A DNA stretch of 64,000 bases from Escherichia coli (lineage in GTDB: Bacteria; Pseudomonadota; Gammaproteobacteria; Enterobacterales; Enterobacteriaceae), in NCBI RefSeq assembly GCF_044324785.1, contig NZ_CP172127.1; one strand, written 5' to 3'. Below, piece after piece: positions 28,897-39,382 of this stretch. The translations under genes were made by a program, and so were the position numbers. Numbering within the stretch: the stretch's first letter is position 1; the number at the start of each line of letters is the position of its first letter. The notes beneath the pieces were generated by a model. It was given only the letters and a program-made list of their open reading frames with translations, had not been told where the DNA came from and searched no databases.

Positions 28897-29191
28897 CTCT
28901 AGATCTCTTTTTTGCCTGCAGGCCCGGGTAATGCGCCCACAAGTTCTGCTTAATCGATTGAAAAAACATCTTTTTTTTAAAGATGTGTTCGATGCTGTGT
29001 ACCAGTGCTCACAGATGTCTACTTTTTTGCGAAAACGTAGATCTCTACCGCCCAACGAAAAGCATGAAAGCGATCACGAATCCCACTGGGTCGTCATGTT
29101 CTGCCGATCGCATCTTCCTATCCTCGCTCCAGGCCTGCCGCATAACCAATCAGGCTTCCTACTTACAGAATTGAGAAAAGAGGATGTGGAA

Positions 29192-33020
<3,829 letters not shown>

Positions 33021-33186
33021 TTTAATATCCCTCCGGCGAATTATGCTCACAACCTGAACTTAACAGAAAACAATCCGTTCAGGGATACGATGTTTGTATT
33101 TTAAGAATCTGACTGCCTGACCCGACGCATTTTACCTCTCCCTATATTCATGCGTCCGGGACATAAACATAAATAAGGGCTATGAG

Positions 33187-34902
33187 ATGAATTCGTTACA
33201 AATCTTAAGTTTTGTCGGTTTTACGCTGCTGGTGGCGGTCATCACCTGGTGGAAGGTCCGCAAAACAGATACCGGATCGCAACAAGGCTATTTTCTTGCC
33301 GGACGTTCACTAAAAGCGCCGGTTATTGCCGCTTCGTTAATGCTAACCAACCTTTCCACGGAACAACTGGTTGGTCTTTCCGGGCAGGCCTACAAAAGCG
33401 GCATGTCGGTGATGGGCTGGGAAGTGACTTCAGCGGTGACGCTGATCTTCCTCGCGCTAATCTTTTTACCGCGCTATCTGAAGCGCGGCATTGCCACCAT
33501 CCCCGATTTTCTGGAGGAACGTTATGATAAAACGACGCGTATTATCATCGACTTCTGCTTCCTCATTGCCACCGGCGTCTGCTTTCTGCCGATTGTTCTC
33601 TACTCCGGCGCGTTGGCGCTCAACAGCCTGTTTCATGTCGGGGAATCGCTACAGATTTCTCACGGTGCAGCGATCTGGCTACTGGTTATTTTGCTTGGTC
33701 TGGCGGGAATTTTGTATGCGGTGATCGGCGGACTGCGCGCAATGGCAGTGGCGGACTCCATTAACGGTATTGGGCTGGTTATTGGCGGGTTGATGGTGCC
33801 GATATTTGGCCTGATCGCGATGGGCAAGGGCAGCTTTATGCAGGGCATTGAGCAACTCACCACCGTTCACGCCGAGAAATTAAACTCAGTCGGTGGCCCG
33901 ACCGATCCCTTGCCGATTGGCGCGGCATTTACCGGTTTGATTCTGGTGAACACCTTTTACTGGTGTACAAATCAGGGCATCGTGCAACGCACGCTGGCGT
34001 CAAAAAGCCTGGCGGAAGGGCAAAAGGGGGCGCTGTTAACGGCGGTGCTGAAAATGCTCGATCCGCTGGTACTGGTGCTGCCAGGGTTGATTGCGTTTCA
34101 TCTGTATCAGGATTTACCTAAAGCCGACATGGCCTACCCGACGCTGGTCAATAACGTTCTGCCAGTGCCACTGGTGGGTTTCTTCGGCGCGGTGTTATTT
34201 GGTGCGGTGATCAGTACCTTCAACGGCTTTCTGAATAGCGCCAGTACGTTATTCAGTATGGGTATTTACCGTCGCATCATTAACCAGAATGCCGAGCCGC
34301 AGCAGCTGGTCACCGTCGGGCGCAAATTTGGTTTCTTTATCGCTATCGTTTCGGTGCTGGTCGCGCCGTGGATCGCCAACGCGCCGCAGGGGCTGTATAG
34401 CTGGATGAAACAGCTCAACGGTATTTACAACGTGCCGCTGGTTACCATCATCATTATGGGCTTTTTCTTCCCGCGCATTCCGGCGCTGGCGGCAAAAGTG
34501 GCGATGGGGATTGGCATAATCAGCTACATCACCATCAACTATCTGGTGAAGTTCGACTTCCATTTCCTCTATGTGCTGGCCTGTACGTTCTGTATCAACG
34601 TGGTCGTGATGCTGGTGATCGGTTTTATCAAACCGCGCGCCACGCCGTTCACCTTCAAAGATGCGTTTGCGGTGGACATGAAACCGTGGAAAAACGTCAA
34701 GATCGCGTCAATTGGCATCCTGTTCGCGATGATTGGCGTCTATGCCGGGCTGGCTGAATTCGGTGGCTACGGTACGCGCTGGTTAGCGATGATCAGTTAT
34801 TTCATCGCTGCCGTAGTGATTGTCTACCTGATTTTTGACAGCTGGCGGCATCGTCACGACCCAGCCGTAACCTTTACTCCCGACGCGAAGGATAGCCTAT
34901 GA
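33187..34902 (+). CDS. yidK: Sodium:solute symporter family transporter YidK, 571 aa
   Basis: Multi-TM SSF-type sequence; operon with yidJ. Confidence 0.9.
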   Translation: MNSLQILSFVGFTLLVAVITWWKVRKTDTGSQQGYFLAGRSLKAPVIAASLMLTNLSTEQLVGLSGQAYKSGMSVMGWEVTSAVTLIFLALIFLPRYLKRGIATIPDFLEERYDKTTRIIIDFCFLIATGVCFLPIVLYSGALALNSLFHVGESLQISHGAAIWLLVILLGLAGILYAVIGGLRAMAVADSINGIGLVIGGLMVPIFGLIAMGKGSFMQGIEQLTTVHAEKLNSVGGPTDPLPIGAAFTGLILVNTFYWCTNQGIVQRTLASKSLAEGQKGALLTAVLKMLDPLVLVLPGLIAFHLYQDLPKADMAYPTLVNNVLPVPLVGFFGAVLFGAVISTFNGFLNSASTLFSMGIYRRIINQNAEPQQLVTVGRKFGFFIAIVSVLVAPWIANAPQGLYSWMKQLNGIYNVPLVTIIIMGFFFPRIPALAAKVAMGIGIISYITINYLVKFDFHFLYVLACTFCINVVVMLVIGFIKPRATPFTFKDAFAVDMKPWKNVKIASIGILFAMIGVYAGLAEFGGYGTRWLAMISYFIAAVVIVYLIFDSWRHRHDPAVTFTPDAKDSL

Positions 34903-36392
34903 AACGCCCCAATTTTCTGTTCATCATGACCGATACCCAGGCCACCAATATGGTCGGTTGCTATAGCGGTAAGCCGCTGAATACGCAAAATATTGATAGT
35001 CTGGCGGCGGAAAGTATTCGCTTTAATTCCGCCTACACTTGTTCACCGGTTTGTACGCCTGCACGCGCCGGACTATTCACCGGTATCTACGCTAACCAGT
35101 CCGGCCCGTGGACCAACAACGTCGCGCCAGGCAAAAACATCTCCACTATGGGGCGCTACTTTAAGGATGCCGGCTATCACACCTGTTACATCGGCAAATG
35201 GCATCTCGACGGTCATGACTATTTCGGCACTGGCGAGTGTCCGCCGGAGTGGGACGCTGATTACTGGTTCGATGGGGCGAACTATCTTAGCGAACTGACG
35301 GAAAAAGAGATTAGCCTGTGGCGCAATGGCCTAAACAGCGTCGAAGATTTACAGGCGAACCATATTGACGAAACCTTCACCTGGGCGCACCGCATCAGCA
35401 ATCGGGCGGTAGATTTTCTGCAACAGCCCGCGCGCGCCGAGGAACCCTTCCTGATGGTGGTTTCGTATGATGAGCCGCATCACCCGTTCACCTGTCCGGT
35501 GGAGTATTTAGAGAAATACGCTGATTTTTACTACGAACTTGGCGAGAAATCACAGGATGACCTGGCGAACAAACCGGAACATCACCGCTTATGGGCGCAG
35601 GCGATGCCATCGCCAGTCGGTGATGACGGGCTTTATCACCATCCGCTCTATTTTGCCTGCAATGACTTTGTTGATGACCAAATCGGACGGGTCATCAATG
35701 CCTTAACGCCAGAGCAACGTGAAAATACGTGGGTCATTTATACCTCCGATCATGGTGAAATGATGGGCGCACATAAGCTGATCAGTAAAGGAGCGGCGAT
35801 GTATGACGACATCACCCGTATTCCGCTGATCATCCGTTCGCCGCAAGGGGAGCGGCGACAGGTTGATACGCCAGTCAGCCATATTGATTTACTACCGACA
35901 ATGATGGCGCTGGCAGATATTGAAAAACCTGACATTTTGCCAGGGGAAAATATCCTCACCACGAAAGAACCACGCGGCGTGATGGTGGAATTTAACCGCT
36001 ACGAGATTGAGCATGACAGCTTTGGCGGTTTTATTCCGGTGCGTTGCTGGGTGACGGATGACTTTAAACTGGTGCTCAACCTCTTCACCAGTGATGAACT
36101 TTACGATCGCCGTAATGACCCAAATGAAATGCATAACCTGATCGATGATATCCGTTTTGCCGACGTTCGCAGCAAAATGCATGACGCCTTATTGGATTAC
36201 ATGGACAAAATTCGCGATCCGTTCCGCAGTTACCAATGGAGCCTGCGTCCGTGGCGTAAAGATGCACGGCCGCACTGGATGGGGGCATTTCGTCCACGCC
36301 CACAAGATGGCTATTCGCCAGTAGTACGCGACTATGACACCGGCCTACCGACACAAGGGGTGAAGGTGGAAGAGAAAAAACAGAAGTTCTGA
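34899..36392 (+). CDS. yidJ: Sulfatase YidJ, 497 aa
   Basis: Sulfatase signature CSPVCTPARAGLFTG (Cys-type active site C-x-P-x-R). Confidence 0.92.
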   Translation: MKRPNFLFIMTDTQATNMVGCYSGKPLNTQNIDSLAAESIRFNSAYTCSPVCTPARAGLFTGIYANQSGPWTNNVAPGKNISTMGRYFKDAGYHTCYIGKWHLDGHDYFGTGECPPEWDADYWFDGANYLSELTEKEISLWRNGLNSVEDLQANHIDETFTWAHRISNRAVDFLQQPARAEEPFLMVVSYDEPHHPFTCPVEYLEKYADFYYELGEKSQDDLANKPEHHRLWAQAMPSPVGDDGLYHHPLYFACNDFVDDQIGRVINALTPEQRENTWVIYTSDHGEMMGAHKLISKGAAMYDDITRIPLIIRSPQGERRQVDTPVSHIDLLPTMMALADIEKPDILPGENILTTKEPRGVMVEFNRYEIEHDSFGGFIPVRCWVTDDFKLVLNLFTSDELYDRRNDPNEMHNLIDDIRFADVRSKMHDALLDYMDKIRDPFRSYQWSLRPWRKDARPHWMGAFRPRPQDGYSPVVRDYDTGLPTQGVKVEEKKQKF

Positions 36393-36438
36393 CGATAATG
36401 CCCGCTGATGATCACCCGGCGGGCATTATTCAGGCTGC

Positions 36439-36888
36439 TTAAACCAGCGAACCGCCGGTCAGGAAGGAAAAGATAAGGAATATCAGCAAAATGCTGCACA
36501 CGATGCCGATACCAAAAAGCAAGGTATGGAAAGCCAGCGTCCCGCCGCCAAAAACCAGCGCGCCGCGAATGCCCCAGCGATTTTCCTTACGCATACCGCC
36601 AATAAATGCGCAAAGTAGCGCAGCAATGGCCAGTGCGATACCGCTTTGATCGAGGATTTTATCGACATCCACGTCCTCTTTTTTCTCCACGGTGGTAATT
36701 TTTTCGCCTTTTATTCCGGCGAGAAGACCTCTTTTAATTTCAGCCGTTTTGTCCGCCACGATGCTTTCAAGCGTTGGCGGTGGTGCGGAAAAAGGGCCGA
36801 ATGAAAAGTGGATAATCCCCATCATTAAAGCGATGGCACCGAACAGCATGCCCAATGAACTGATTTTATTTTGCGCTATGATACCCAT
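36439..36888 (-). CDS. yidI: Inner-membrane protein YidI, 149 aa
   Basis: Small hydrophobic ORF; position. Confidence 0.8.
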   Translation of the reverse strand: MGIIAQNKISSLGMLFGAIALMMGIIHFSFGPFSAPPPTLESIVADKTAEIKRGLLAGIKGEKITTVEKKEDVDVDKILDQSGIALAIAALLCAFIGGMRKENRWGIRGALVFGGGTLAFHTLLFGIGIVCSILLIFLIFSFLTGGSLV

Positions 36889-36996
36889 CTGACCTCCTTG
36901 TAGCGGATGGCAAAAGCATATCAGGAAACGGGCGGACGAAATTCTTAAAAAAAACCGCTAAAGATAGAGCGTTAGTGAAATTGCAAAGGAGCAACA

Positions 36997-37344
36997 ATGA
37001 AAATTTCCCGCCTCGGAGAAGCGCCCGATTACCGCTTCTCGCTGGCTAATGAGCGTACTTTTCTGGCGTGGATCCGTACCGCACTAGGATTTCTGGCGGC
37101 GGGGGTTGGGCTTGACCAACTTGCGCCAGATTTCGCCACGCCCGTCATTCGCGAACTGCTGGCGTTGTTGTTGTGTCTGTTTTCCGGCGGGTTAGCGATG
37201 TATGGCTACTTGCGCTGGTTACGCAATGAAAAAGCGATGCGTCTGAAAGAGGACCTGCCTTACACCAACAGCTTATTAATCATCAGCTTAATATTGATGG
37301 TCGTGGCGGTGATCGTTATGGGACTGGTGTTGTATGCCGGATAG
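36997..37344 (+). CDS. yidH: Inner-membrane protein YidH (DUF202), 115 aa
   Basis: ORF-track; overlaps yidG start. Confidence 0.85.
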   Translation: MKISRLGEAPDYRFSLANERTFLAWIRTALGFLAAGVGLDQLAPDFATPVIRELLALLLCLFSGGLAMYGYLRWLRNEKAMRLKEDLPYTNSLLIISLILMVVAVIVMGLVLYAG

Positions 37345-37696
37345 CCGCAAAGCCAGACGCATTGCCGACCCAGGGCTGCAGCCGGAGCGTACATCACTGG
37401 CGTGGTTTCGTACCATGCTGGGCTACGGCGCGTTGATGGCGTTGGCTATCAAACACAACTGGCACCAGGCGGGCATGTTATTCTGGATTTCGATTGGCAT
37501 CCTCGCCATCGTGGCGCTGATCCTCTGGCACTACACCCGTAATCGTAATTTAATGGATGTCACGAATAGCGATTTTTCCCAATTTCACGTAGTCCGTGAC
37601 AAATTTTTGATCTCCCTCGCGGTGTTATCTCTCGCAATACTGTTTGCTGTAACGCATATACATCAACTTATCGTATTTATTGAGAGAGTCGCATGA
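37334..37696 (+). CDS. yidG: Inner-membrane protein YidG, 120 aa
   Basis: ORF-track; operon yidHGF. Confidence 0.85.
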   Translation: MPDSRKARRIADPGLQPERTSLAWFRTMLGYGALMALAIKHNWHQAGMLFWISIGILAIVALILWHYTRNRNLMDVTNSDFSQFHVVRDKFLISLAVLSLAILFAVTHIHQLIVFIERVA

Positions 37697-38190
37697 CAGG
37701 AAGTCAGGTCATTGATGCTGAAGAGGACAGGCATAAACTGGTTGTAGAGTATAAGGATGCTCTGCAACCTGCCGATTTTTATCACAATTTCAAACAGCGG
37801 GGCATCCGCTCCGTACAGCTTATTCCCCATCTTGAATTTGATGACCGGGGCGATCTGACGGCGGCTTCGGTGACAGCAGAGCTGTGGGGGAAATTTTTAA
37901 TTGCCCTGTTCGAGTGTTGGGTGCGGGCAGATATCAGTCGTATCTCGATTGAGCTTTTTGACGCCACCTTACAAAAATGGTGTGGCAGCGAAAACCCGCA
38001 ACCGCGCCGTGGCTGCCAGGCGTGCGACTGGCATCTGCTGTGTCCGCACGCTCGGGAGGAGACGCCAGACAGCGTGCTTTGTGCGGGCTATCAGGCGTTT
38101 TATTCTTACTCTGCGCCGCATATGCGGGTGATGCGTGATCTGATAAAGCAGCATCGTTCTCCCATGGAGCTGATGACGATGCTGCGGTGA
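37693..38190 (+). CDS. yidF: YidF, 165 aa; resembles a C-terminal fragment of an anaerobic sulfatase-maturating (SPASM-type) enzyme
   Basis: Cys-rich C-terminal segment (WCGSENPQPRRGCQACDWHLLCPH); neighbourhood with the sulfatase yidJ. Confidence 0.75.
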   Translation: MTGSQVIDAEEDRHKLVVEYKDALQPADFYHNFKQRGIRSVQLIPHLEFDDRGDLTAASVTAELWGKFLIALFECWVRADISRISIELFDATLQKWCGSENPQPRRGCQACDWHLLCPHAREETPDSVLCAGYQAFYSYSAPHMRVMRDLIKQHRSPMELMTMLR

Positions 38191-38197
38191 CGTGAGC

Positions 38198-39382
38198 TTA
38201 AACGGGCTGCCCCTGATGCGACATCCGCGTCGCCAGCGGTAGCCAGCACAGCACGATCAACAATCCCATTAAGGTCATCAACAACCCCAGGCTGCCCTGA
38301 CCGGTTTGCGGCAACATCGCAGAGAGCGACGCCAGCACGCCGGAACCAATGTTTTGCAGACCGCCGACCAGCGCGCCCGCGGTGCCAGCCAGGAAGGGGA
38401 ACGGCTCCATCGCGCCGCTGGTCGCCAGCGGAAACAGCATCCCGGCACCGAAAAAGAACAGCGCGGCGGGAACGAGCAGCGTCCAGACATTCATCACGCC
38501 AAACCAGTCGGGGATCCACATCAGCAAGCCAGCCAGCAGGCAGCAGATAACCGACTGCCACATCAACGTTGAGAAGCGTTTATTAGGACGTCCGGCAAAC
38601 CATGCGCCAAAAAATGCCGCCGGAATCGGCAGAATAAACAAAATACTGACCGTCATACTGCTCAGCCCTAATACCGCGCCCATCAGCACGCCGGAGCAGG
38701 CTTCAAAGGCGGCAATCCCTGCCAGACCGCCAATCAGCATCAGCAAATAACAGTTAAAACCGCTGTTACCGAAAAGCGTTTTATAACTGGTAAGCAGGCG
38801 CGTGCGCGGTGCGTCGACCGGACGTGTTTCCGGCATCCAGCGGGCCATACTGAAGGTCACACCGGCGCAAAGTACCAACAAAAAGAGATAACAGGCGCGC
38901 CAGTTCCACATCGTATCCAGCAGACCACCGATTAGCGGTGCGAGCAACGGACTGACAAGAATCCCCATGTTTAACAAGCTGTTAGCGAGGCGCAACTGTG
39001 TCCGTTCATATAAATCACGCGGCAAAGTACGCGCCATTACGCCGCCAACGCCGGTGCCCATGCCCTGCATCGCGCTGGCGGCAATCAATACCGTCAAACT
39101 GGAGGTCGTGACCGCGACCAGCGTTGCCAGCATAAAAATGGACATTCCGACGAGAATCACCGGCCGGCGACCCACACGGTCGGAAATCGGGCCATAAAAC
39201 AGCTGTGAGACACCGTAAGTCAGCAGATAAGCGCCCATTACGCTCTGCACCGCCCCTTCACGGACGTTGAGATCGCGCGCCATATCGGCAATAGCTGGAA
39301 TATAAATGGTTTGCGCCATCTGACCGACGGCCACGAGTAATACCAACATCAATAACAAATTGACGTTTCTATGCCTTTTCAT
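38198..39382 (-). CDS. emrD: MFS multidrug efflux transporter EmrD, 394 aa
   Basis: Start trimmed to MKRHRNVNLLLMLVLLVAVGQ; 12-TM MFS. Confidence 0.93.
   Translation of the reverse strand: MKRHRNVNLLLMLVLLVAVGQMAQTIYIPAIADMARDLNVREGAVQSVMGAYLLTYGVSQLFYGPISDRVGRRPVILVGMSIFMLATLVAVTTSSLTVLIAASAMQGMGTGVGGVMARTLPRDLYERTQLRLANSLLNMGILVSPLLAPLIGGLLDTMWNWRACYLFLLVLCAGVTFSMARWMPETRPVDAPRTRLLTSYKTLFGNSGFNCYLLMLIGGLAGIAAFEACSGVLMGAVLGLSSMTVSILFILPIPAAFFGAWFAGRPNKRFSTLMWQSVICCLLAGLLMWIPDWFGVMNVWTLLVPAALFFFGAGMLFPLATSGAMEPFPFLAGTAGALVGGLQNIGSGVLASLSAMLPQTGQGSLGLLMTLMGLLIVLCWLPLATRMSHQGQPV

Follow-up and report, generated by a model that had tools for sequence, protein, structure and literature searches.

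YidF of Escherichia coli, a reduced relic of a radical-SAM sulfatase maturase whose full-length form persists at the corresponding locus of related bacteria

The sulfatase YidJ of Escherichia coli carries the motif for formylglycine maturation, and a small protein resembling part of a sulfatase maturase, YidF, is encoded close by. This raises the question of which enzyme activates YidJ and what YidF does. We analyzed a stretch of 64,000 nucleotides from E. coli (RefSeq assembly GCF_044324785.1, contig NZ_CP172127.1; hereafter the window), in which positions 33187-38190 hold six open reading frames (ORFs), yidK, yidJ, yidI, yidH, yidG and yidF, whose coordinates match the ORF list of the window. 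The original prediction had read these genes as a sulfatase module with a transporter of the sodium:solute symporter (SSF) family, a Cys-type sulfatase and a maturase-like fragment. The gene yidF (37693-38190, plus strand) encodes a shrunken, 165-amino-acid (aa) remnant of a radical S-adenosylmethionine (SAM) sulfatase maturase of the SPASM type; at this very position, related bacteria still encode the enzyme in its full length. Overall, we lean towards a reading in which YidF is a reduced anaerobic sulfatase-maturating enzyme (anSME) and not the maturase of YidJ, YidJ would be matured in trans, and the C-terminal half of the old enzyme would have been kept for a second, non-catalytic role.

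The homology of YidF was examined with Pfam and NCBIfam models, with a profile alignment of the full-length family to the anSME of Clostridium perfringens, anSMEcpe (4K36), and with a fold search against the Protein Data Bank (PDB). The NCBIfam anSME model TIGR03942 matched YidF with an E-value of 3.2e-20, covering only profile positions 160-245 and a C-terminal stretch, and the score of 72.5 bits stays below the curated family cut-off of 349.45. PRK13745 matched as well (1.3e-18). Neither Radical_SAM (PF04055) nor SPASM (PF13186) of Pfam matched YidF even at E<=10, while PF04055 found a full-length orthologue (L024) at 3.8e-21. The domain search proposed in the original prediction was thus empty for Pfam and successful for NCBIfam. 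A phmmer search of the PDB sequences with YidF alone returned chance matches only (ribosomal protein eL40 at E 0.6), and the link to anSMEcpe needed the full-length family profile and the fold search. AlphaFold2 predicted a compact fold, with a mean local confidence (pLDDT) of 83.5 and a global score (pTM) of 0.82 for a mixed alignment and values of 81.1 and 0.80 for an alignment of short forms only. The only significant matches to this model in the PDB were chains of anSMEcpe (Foldseek E 4e-6, TM 0.63-0.66). Common descent with the anSMEs is supported by sequence, fold and synteny, with yidJ located 1.3 kb upstream. A lack of any similarity to SPASM or maturase domains, named in the original prediction as the outcome that would speak against it, is not what we found.

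Comparison with a syntenic orthologue of 370 aa, which serves as reference for numbering, reveals what was lost. YidF is 36% identical to residues 158-370 of the reference, and the Escherichia protein lacks residues 10-151, 244-302 and 318-321, that is about 142 N-terminal and about 59 SPASM residues. With them went the radical-SAM cluster ligands C15, C19 and C22 (CX3CX2C), the GGEP-type SAM-binding motif and about four of the six barrel units. Also missing are the ligands of the first auxiliary cluster, Aux I (C246, C252, C267 and C322, corresponding to C255, C261, C276 and C330 of anSMEcpe), and D268, the equivalent of the catalytic Asp277 of anSMEcpe. The retained part comprises the final third of the barrel together with the Aux II half of the SPASM domain and a highly conserved C-terminal helix. 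The earlier description of YidF as a Cys-rich C-terminal part therefore holds for its C-terminal origin and needs correction in that the Aux I half is deleted too. The codons of C108, C111, C117 and C130 (38014-38082, plus strand) correspond, in the profile alignment to 4K36 and its per-site table, to the four Aux II [4Fe-4S] ligands C317, C320, C326 and C348 of anSMEcpe, numbered as in PMC5715301. All intact short forms keep C309, C312, one of C318/C322, and C335 in reference numbering, and the only short locus that has lost two Aux II cysteines is a pseudogene (L047), whose yidF contains an internal stop.

Because only the Aux II cysteines are kept while the radical-SAM motif, SAM core, Aux I ligands and Asp are gone, we conclude that YidF is probably unable to bind or cleave SAM and would not act as a radical-SAM maturase. 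SAM-dependent formylglycine formation by YidF is very unlikely since the motifs it needs are missing. In every listed E. coli genome, the annotation pipeline of RefSeq (PGAP) labels the 165-aa protein as 'radical SAM protein' despite its having neither a radical-SAM domain nor the cluster motif.

What the ancestral protein looked like can be seen at the same locus in other genera. One scan of species-representative genomes with the YidF alignment yielded 59 loci, onto which the window proteins were then mapped. The adjacency of yidH, yidG and yidF is invariant across these loci, and yidH lies immediately upstream of yidG-yidF in every related locus examined; the trio usually sits between glvA or yidLKJ on one side and emrD/ilvB on the other. 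At 24 loci the gene in the yidF position encodes 369-376 aa, contains CX3CX2C and has the N-terminus MTGCQVMAKPASSRCNLxCRYCFY. The starts of these full-length genes either overlap the yidG stop or lie a few nt from it, the distance being about 20 nt at most. Look-ups by YidG homologue added individual cases. The Enterobacter cloacae complex has an AraC-type gene and, in one contiguous block, SSF transporter, sulfatase, two DUF202 proteins and a 367-aa protein with Radical_SAM and SPASM domains. Citrobacter rodentium shows the E. coli gene order including yidI but encodes a 370-aa YidF, and Salmonella enterica subsp. enterica has DUF202-DUF202 followed by a 176-aa protein and no sulfatase. The full-length family matches anSMEcpe 4K36 from end to end (E 4e-82), with both Radical_SAM and SPASM present in Pfam. 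As full-length YidF is 45% identical to AslB and to YdeM, which are themselves 41% alike, it constitutes a third group of anSME paralogues.

At least seven lineages have short forms. Relatives of YidF with 162-178 aa were recovered by a protein search from Escherichia marmotae and Escherichia albertii (83-86% identity to YidF), from Citrobacter (about 50%) and from Superficieibacter, Leclercia, Silvania and Klebsiella (41-48%), along with a partial 231-aa relative with about 53 extra SPASM residues in mid-protein. The N-terminal deletion differs between them in reference numbering: residues 10-151 are missing in Escherichia, Citrobacter groups A and B and Salmonella, which share this junction, 25-150 in Citrobacter amalonaticus ku-bf3, where a remnant of CX3CX2C is still there, 23-113 in the MGYG110-type, 42-151 in Superficieibacter, 7-153 in Leclercia and about 10-148 in Klebsiella/Raoultella. 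The mid-protein deletion extends in all short lineages from about 244/246 to 297/302. An exhaustive profile search also recovered in-frame intermediates, namely a 363-aa form with degenerate motifs, forms of 249 and 220 aa, and forms of 310-315 aa that have a mid deletion with other boundaries and an undeleted but degenerate N-terminus. All intermediates whose context was examined follow a DUF202-DUF202 pair at loci lacking yidK/yidJ. The locus hence displays a graded series of lengths: 370, 363, 350-360, 310-315, 249, 220, 197 and 165-178 aa, and the intermediates between 197 and 363 aa are without exception in frame. With the exception of two loci, and not counting L059 with its poor assembly, the truncated genes keep an uninterrupted reading frame from the ATG coupled to yidG down to the original stop codon.

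We read the short forms as the result of repeated, stepwise erosion. In a tree of the flanking proteins, short and full states are interleaved (L029-L041 100%, L021-L054 100%, L019-L053 88%). Long yidF genes are also found at Kosakonia-type loci without yidJ (L034, L035, L045 and L051), where they carry C19S, C252F and C267Y/D268A or deletions of residues 261-274 and 257-279 while the Aux II cysteines are untouched. The alternative is a single ancient truncated allele, spread between genera by recombination, as the ancestor of all short forms. The near-identical place of the mid deletion in all short forms and the N-terminal junction common to Escherichia, Citrobacter and Salmonella would fit such an origin, as would the mixture of short and full alleles within the Citrobacter freundii complex in the tree of flanking proteins. 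Moreover, the synonymous divergence (dS) of yidF is 2-4 times that of its flanks in the same genome pairs (0.75 vs 0.17-0.26 in Leclercia, 0.92 vs 0.2-0.6 in Escherichia), which suggests that old alleles were exchanged by recombination or that codon constraint is weak. Against a single origin stand the variable N-terminal junctions, the 310-315 aa forms with their other mid-deletion boundaries, and the small independent deletions in the same region at L034 and L035. In addition, short forms cluster by lineage with the respective full-length forms: Leclercia/Silvania short forms join the Leclercia full-length gene with 87% bootstrap support in a gene tree of 157 columns, and the lineage-specific C-terminal tails of short and intermediate forms are shared with the full-length forms of their own genus. 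Long-branch attraction would favor false monophyly, yet polyphyly is observed. We therefore consider a single ancient allele rather unlikely as the source of all short forms. The excess of yidF dS over that of the flanks and the N-terminal junction that the three genera named above share indicate, however, that exchange or retention of old alleles also played a part, and no firm count of independent truncations is possible.

The idea that loss of yidK/yidJ always drives truncation holds only in part. Full-length yidF is accompanied by yidJ at 14 of 24 loci and short yidF at about 8 of 30; Escherichia, Salmonella arizonae and Superficieibacter combine yidJ with a short YidF, and Kosakonia has a long form without yidJ. 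E. albertii NBRC 107761 (L014, 2784-4745) has lost yidK and yidJ, retains a fragment of yidL and carries a frameshift in yidF, while its yidH/yidG are 98-99% identical to those of E. coli.

Is the short protein still under selection? The original prediction had framed the matter as one of this strain, but 5420 of 5426 complete E. coli genomes have the 165-aa form, as do other Escherichia species. We calculated the ratio of nonsynonymous to synonymous substitution rates (dN/dS; Nei-Gojobori) for pairs of short forms within clades and obtained 0.09-0.29 for Escherichia, 0.11-0.25 for Citrobacter group A, 0.22-0.27 for Citrobacter group B, 0.10 for Salmonella, 0.24-0.36 for Klebsiella/Raoultella, 0.27-0.33 for Leclercia/Silvania and 0.19-0.27 for Superficieibacter, compared with 0.03-0.26 for full-length genes. 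The corresponding ratio of site proportions (pN/pS) was below 1 in 12 short-short pairs (Fisher p between 5e-4 and 7e-23). For the flanking genes of these genome pairs, dN/dS was 0.01-0.33, mostly below 0.12. When 165-codon ORFs were simulated under neutrality with substitutions only, 5% were still open after 0.2 changes per site and 0.1% after 0.7-1.0; the synonymous divergence observed within short clades is 0.1-2. Region-wise values for the degenerate N-terminal and the conserved C-terminal part were 0.51 vs 0.29 in the Pluralibacter-type and 0.45 vs 0.42 in the MGYG110-type, a difference in the expected direction based on few sites. An overlapping antisense ORF as the cause of the low dN/dS was rejected, as yidF dS is high and not depressed and the antisense ORFs are short.

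Several observations weigh against our reading and lend some support to the alternative that YidF is a dead, functionless fragment whose open frame and conservation are accidental. In three-taxon counts, short branches carry 23-66 unique amino-acid changes and their full-length sisters 3-8. Variants of 145 aa, caused by frameshift, occur in a minority of E. coli assemblies, the E. albertii type strain, which has also lost yidK/yidJ, carries a frameshift in yidF, and Leclercia adecarboxylata NCTC13032 has an internal stop; because of these variants, yidF is dispensable at least sometimes. The missing Pfam domain would also be expected of a dead fragment. Opposed to this are the dN/dS values of 0.09-0.36 in seven short-only clades, the simulation, in which at most 5% of neutral ORFs stay open at the synonymous divergence of the clades, the reading frames running from coupled ATG to original stop at all but two good-quality short loci, and the four-cysteine set that is present in all intact forms and lost only in a pseudogene. 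The dead-fragment explanation is thus already disfavored and seems improbable to us. Short yidF is not a dead relic: it is in frame, coupled to yidG and under purifying selection in several lineages, including genomes without yidK/yidJ. The constraint is real but much looser than that on the enzyme, because the short forms outpace their full-length sisters in amino-acid change by a factor of 5-15.

If YidF is not its maturase, is YidJ still a working sulfatase? yidJ (34899-36392, plus strand; its start overlaps the yidK stop) encodes a predicted cytoplasmic Cys-type sulfatase of the S1 class, matching Sulfatase (PF00884) with 2.8e-71 and 240.7 bits vs a cut-off of 25, and SGSH_C with 1.7e-16. 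A signal peptide is lacking because the sulfatase domain begins at residue 4 and leaves no room for one. The predicted C-x-P-x-R signature is present as C52-T-P-A-R56 (codons at 35052-35066, plus strand, read from the translation), and the full S1 signature (C/S)-x-P-x-R-x4-T-G as C52-TPARAGLFTG. CTPARAGLFTG is invariant in 23 orthologues, regardless of the length of the neighboring YidF. The dN/dS of YidJ is 0.05-0.10 among Escherichia species, which all have the short YidF. Given these values and the identical motif, YidJ appears to be still in use and still in need of formylglycine.

The original prediction had found no full-length maturase nearby and held that the window alone does not tell what activates YidJ, and we agree on both counts. 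A tblastn search with AslB, YdeM and a full-length YidF orthologue found no other anSME-like sequence in the 64-kb window. The genome search proposed in the original prediction was productive. In the closest complete genome (NZ_CP076709.1), aslB (411 aa) lies beside aslA and ydeM (385 aa) beside ydeN, and among 5426 complete E. coli genomes aslB is present in 5424 and ydeM in 5334. When AslB is overexpressed in E. coli, human Cys-type sulfatases produced there gain up to 4.6-fold in activity (PMC11215262, citing Gene 2017;634:53), and a third formylglycine system independent of AslB and YdeM is suspected in this species (PMC8379841). Since YidJ seems to be selected with its motif intact while YidF would be unable to serve, maturation in trans by AslB, YdeM or the third system is most likely; AslB and/or YdeM would act anaerobically, with the suspected third system as a further candidate. 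The same genome also encodes, outside the window, a metallo-beta-lactamase-type alkyl/aryl-sulfatase near ydcC (L062, 12591-14567), so formylglycine-independent sulfatases coexist with three S1 sulfatases.

Alternatively, YidJ could be cryptic and never activated in E. coli, its dedicated maturase having been lost. The truncation of that maturase fits this view, as does the fact that we found neither an activity nor a substrate of YidJ in the searched literature. It is contradicted by the low dN/dS across Escherichia and the invariant motif, by the two full-length anSMEs in more than 98% of E. coli genomes and by the ability of E. coli to make active heterologous Cys-type sulfatases, boosted by AslB overexpression (PMC11215262), and we regard it as quite improbable. 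That YidF still helps to make formylglycine on YidJ, either as the AslB/YdeM-independent third system or as a subunit recruiting another radical-SAM enzyme, is barely credible: although YidF is homologous to anSMEs and linked to a Cys-type sulfatase gene, a third system is suspected (PMC8379841) and no report of yidF having been tested turned up in the searched literature, YidF has no CX3CX2C, SAM-binding motifs, Aux I ligands or Asp277 equivalent, and short forms are under selection where the locus has lost yidK/yidJ (S. enterica, Klebsiella, Raoultella, C. freundii complex).

We therefore return to trans maturation of YidJ and to a YidF that probably has another job. In the mechanism we propose, the C-terminal half of the ancestral enzyme would have had a second, non-catalytic role that outlived the maturase role. 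This selected C-terminal module would be translated only from the start coupled to yidG, because of which only in-frame upstream losses would be tolerated, and the dispensable N-terminal and Aux I parts would erode by in-frame deletions only. The present protein would most likely be a cytoplasmic partner, with a single Aux II-type cluster, of the membrane pair YidH/YidG. Pointers to this pair are the invariant adjacency, the conserved translational coupling and the joint retention under selection in sulfatase-less genomes, yidH and yidG having dN/dS of 0.01-0.33. As electrons in anSMEcpe are proposed to travel from the buried site through Aux II to the surface of the protein (PMC5715301), a small redox or cluster-binding subunit is plausible for an Aux II-only module. 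More specifically, the short YidF may represent an undescribed kind of protein, a SPASM remnant without radical-SAM domain that holds only a surface Aux II-type [4Fe-4S] cluster and works with YidH/YidG, for example as the redox or iron-sulfur-dependent subunit of a small anion/sulfate channel. We offer this as a tentative and somewhat doubtful suggestion; it would explain the survival of the protein beyond its own catalytic domain and, in many genomes, beyond the sulfatase. A further step, in which the protein would contribute to formylglycine formation independent of AslB and YdeM in E. coli, is less likely and a long shot.

This proposal has further points on its debit side. Cluster binding by YidF, its contact with YidH/YidG and any phenotype are putative, and AslB and YdeM are only candidates for the maturation of YidJ. 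In the short forms of Citrobacter group A, Tyr occupies the third Aux II position, and C322 may serve in its place. AlphaFold2 confidence drops to pLDDT 54-67 across the Cys-rich loop, and the model may in part be a memory of the anSME fold. Erwinia rhapontici (L067, 5664-7781) has yidH-yidG without yidF. Its YidG is 80% identical to that of E. coli, and genes for integrase, transposase and type VI secretion surround the pair, which was probably acquired horizontally. YidH itself surfaced in a screen for D-alanine exporters, in which intracellular D-alanine was not lowered (PMC10299036).

The remaining genes of the window place YidF in its setting. yidL (32127-33050, minus strand) encodes an AraC-family regulator divergent from yidK, identified by its ORF and the helix-turn-helix annotation of RefSeq, with HTH_AraC/HTH_18 of Pfam found on orthologues. 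yidK (33187-34902, plus strand) encodes a sodium:solute symporter, the presumed importer of a sulfated substrate. Its assignment to the SSF family, like that of YidJ to the sulfatases, was borne out by Pfam (PF00474, 2.7e-50, 171.9 bits vs a cut-off of 22.8) and NCBIfam (NF007790, 856.6 bits vs an equivalog cut-off of 401). yidI (36439-36888, minus strand) encodes a small membrane protein on the strand opposite to its neighbors yidJ and yidH. It occupies this place in Escherichia, C. rodentium and some Citrobacter and Salmonella but not in the Enterobacter cloacae complex, and seems to have been inserted later, splitting an ancestral operon. yidH (36997-37344) and yidG (37334-37696), both on the plus strand, encode DUF202 membrane proteins (PF02656; 2.8e-19 and 69.8 bits, and 7.1e-12 and 46.0 bits, respectively, vs a gathering cut-off of 23.4). 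The yidG stop overlaps the yidF start (ATGA) in the junction sequence GCATGACAGG, and overlaps of a few bases join yidK/yidJ, yidH/yidG and yidG/yidF. With three genes in between, yidF is the fourth gene after yidJ and not, as had been stated, three genes downstream.

Downstream of yidF, emrD is convergent, the two stops being 7 nt apart (38188-38200), and no terminator-like hairpin was found between them. A promoter/terminator scan gave fewer promoter-like sites than shuffled sequences, and operon boundaries are not resolvable from it. Directly upstream of yidL (28931-32130) lie a phosphotransferase system EIICB-type ORF and an intact 440-aa 6-phospho-alpha-glucosidase of the glvA type, and in many genera without yidLKJ a glvA-type glucosidase gene directly abuts yidH. 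Of 5426 complete E. coli genomes, 5110 contain at least 80% of the 5.4-kb stretch, with an identity of 95-99% (98.4-98.6% for the best matches listed), and the gene names in the RefSeq annotation of the closest E. coli genome are identical. We read the region as a sugar-sulfate utilization module of regulator YidL, Na+-coupled importer YidK and cytoplasmic Cys-type sulfatase YidJ, followed by the remnant accessory operon yidH-yidG-yidF. A sulfated-hexose substrate fits, because the closest solved sulfatases to YidJ act on sulfated carbohydrates or choline sulfate. A yidK deletion has a growth phenotype on galactose (PMC5293155).

The genes themselves are known E. coli genes. In the searched literature we found no paper on the following points, which we believe to be new: that yidF is the reduced version of a third anSME paralogue, which sister genera still have in full length at this locus, that it retains exactly the Aux II ligand set, that reduced forms are widespread, in frame and under purifying selection, and that they travel with the DUF202 pair and not with the sulfatase. 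For annotation, the label 'radical SAM protein' in thousands of E. coli genomes misleads and lets YidJ be wrongly credited with a dedicated maturase. For the sulfatase problem, a selected, motif-intact Cys-type YidJ that was kept while its dedicated maturase was reduced implies that maturation in trans most likely works; with YidJ as natural substrate, aslB, ydeM and yidF provide a clean genetic design for the formylglycine question in E. coli, which has been open since 2007. For protein evolution, the graded series portrays an enzyme whittled in frame to a retained sub-domain that would be expressible only from an upstream coupled start. Finally, tying YidH/YidG to an anSME-derived partner gives a first handle on the function of these DUF202 proteins.

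Compared with known systems, YidF stands closest to its parent family, the anSMEs, such as anSMEcpe (PDB 4K36-4K39) and AtsB of Klebsiella, with which it shares the Aux II ligands, but it has 165 instead of about 370 aa and lacks the radical-SAM motif, SAM core, Aux I ligands and catalytic Asp. The full-length orthologues of C. rodentium, Citrobacter braakii, Citrobacter werkmanii, Citrobacter sedlakii, the Enterobacter cloacae complex, Kluyvera, Trabulsiella, Atlantibacter, Yokenella, Pseudocitrobacter and Kosakonia have in common with E. coli YidF the locus, the upstream yidH-yidG, the yidG-coupled start, the MTG(C) N-terminus and the tail APHMRVMRDLxKQHRSPxEL. Unlike YidF, they comprise 367-376 aa, contain all 3+8 cluster cysteines and the Asp base, and change their amino acids 5-15 times more slowly. 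AslB and YdeM belong to the same family and are each encoded beside a sulfatase gene; both are intact, neither is preceded by DUF202 genes, and the window YidF aligns with them only partially at 21-26% identity. A natural reduction of SPASM to a single auxiliary cluster is likewise known from the Twitch-domain radical-SAM enzymes (PMC5715301). Twitch proteins, however, keep the radical-SAM domain and Aux I and lack CX2CX5CX3C. YidF does not belong among them, as it is the reverse: it has neither radical-SAM domain nor Aux I but retains the Aux II set of CX2CX5C and a distal Cys.

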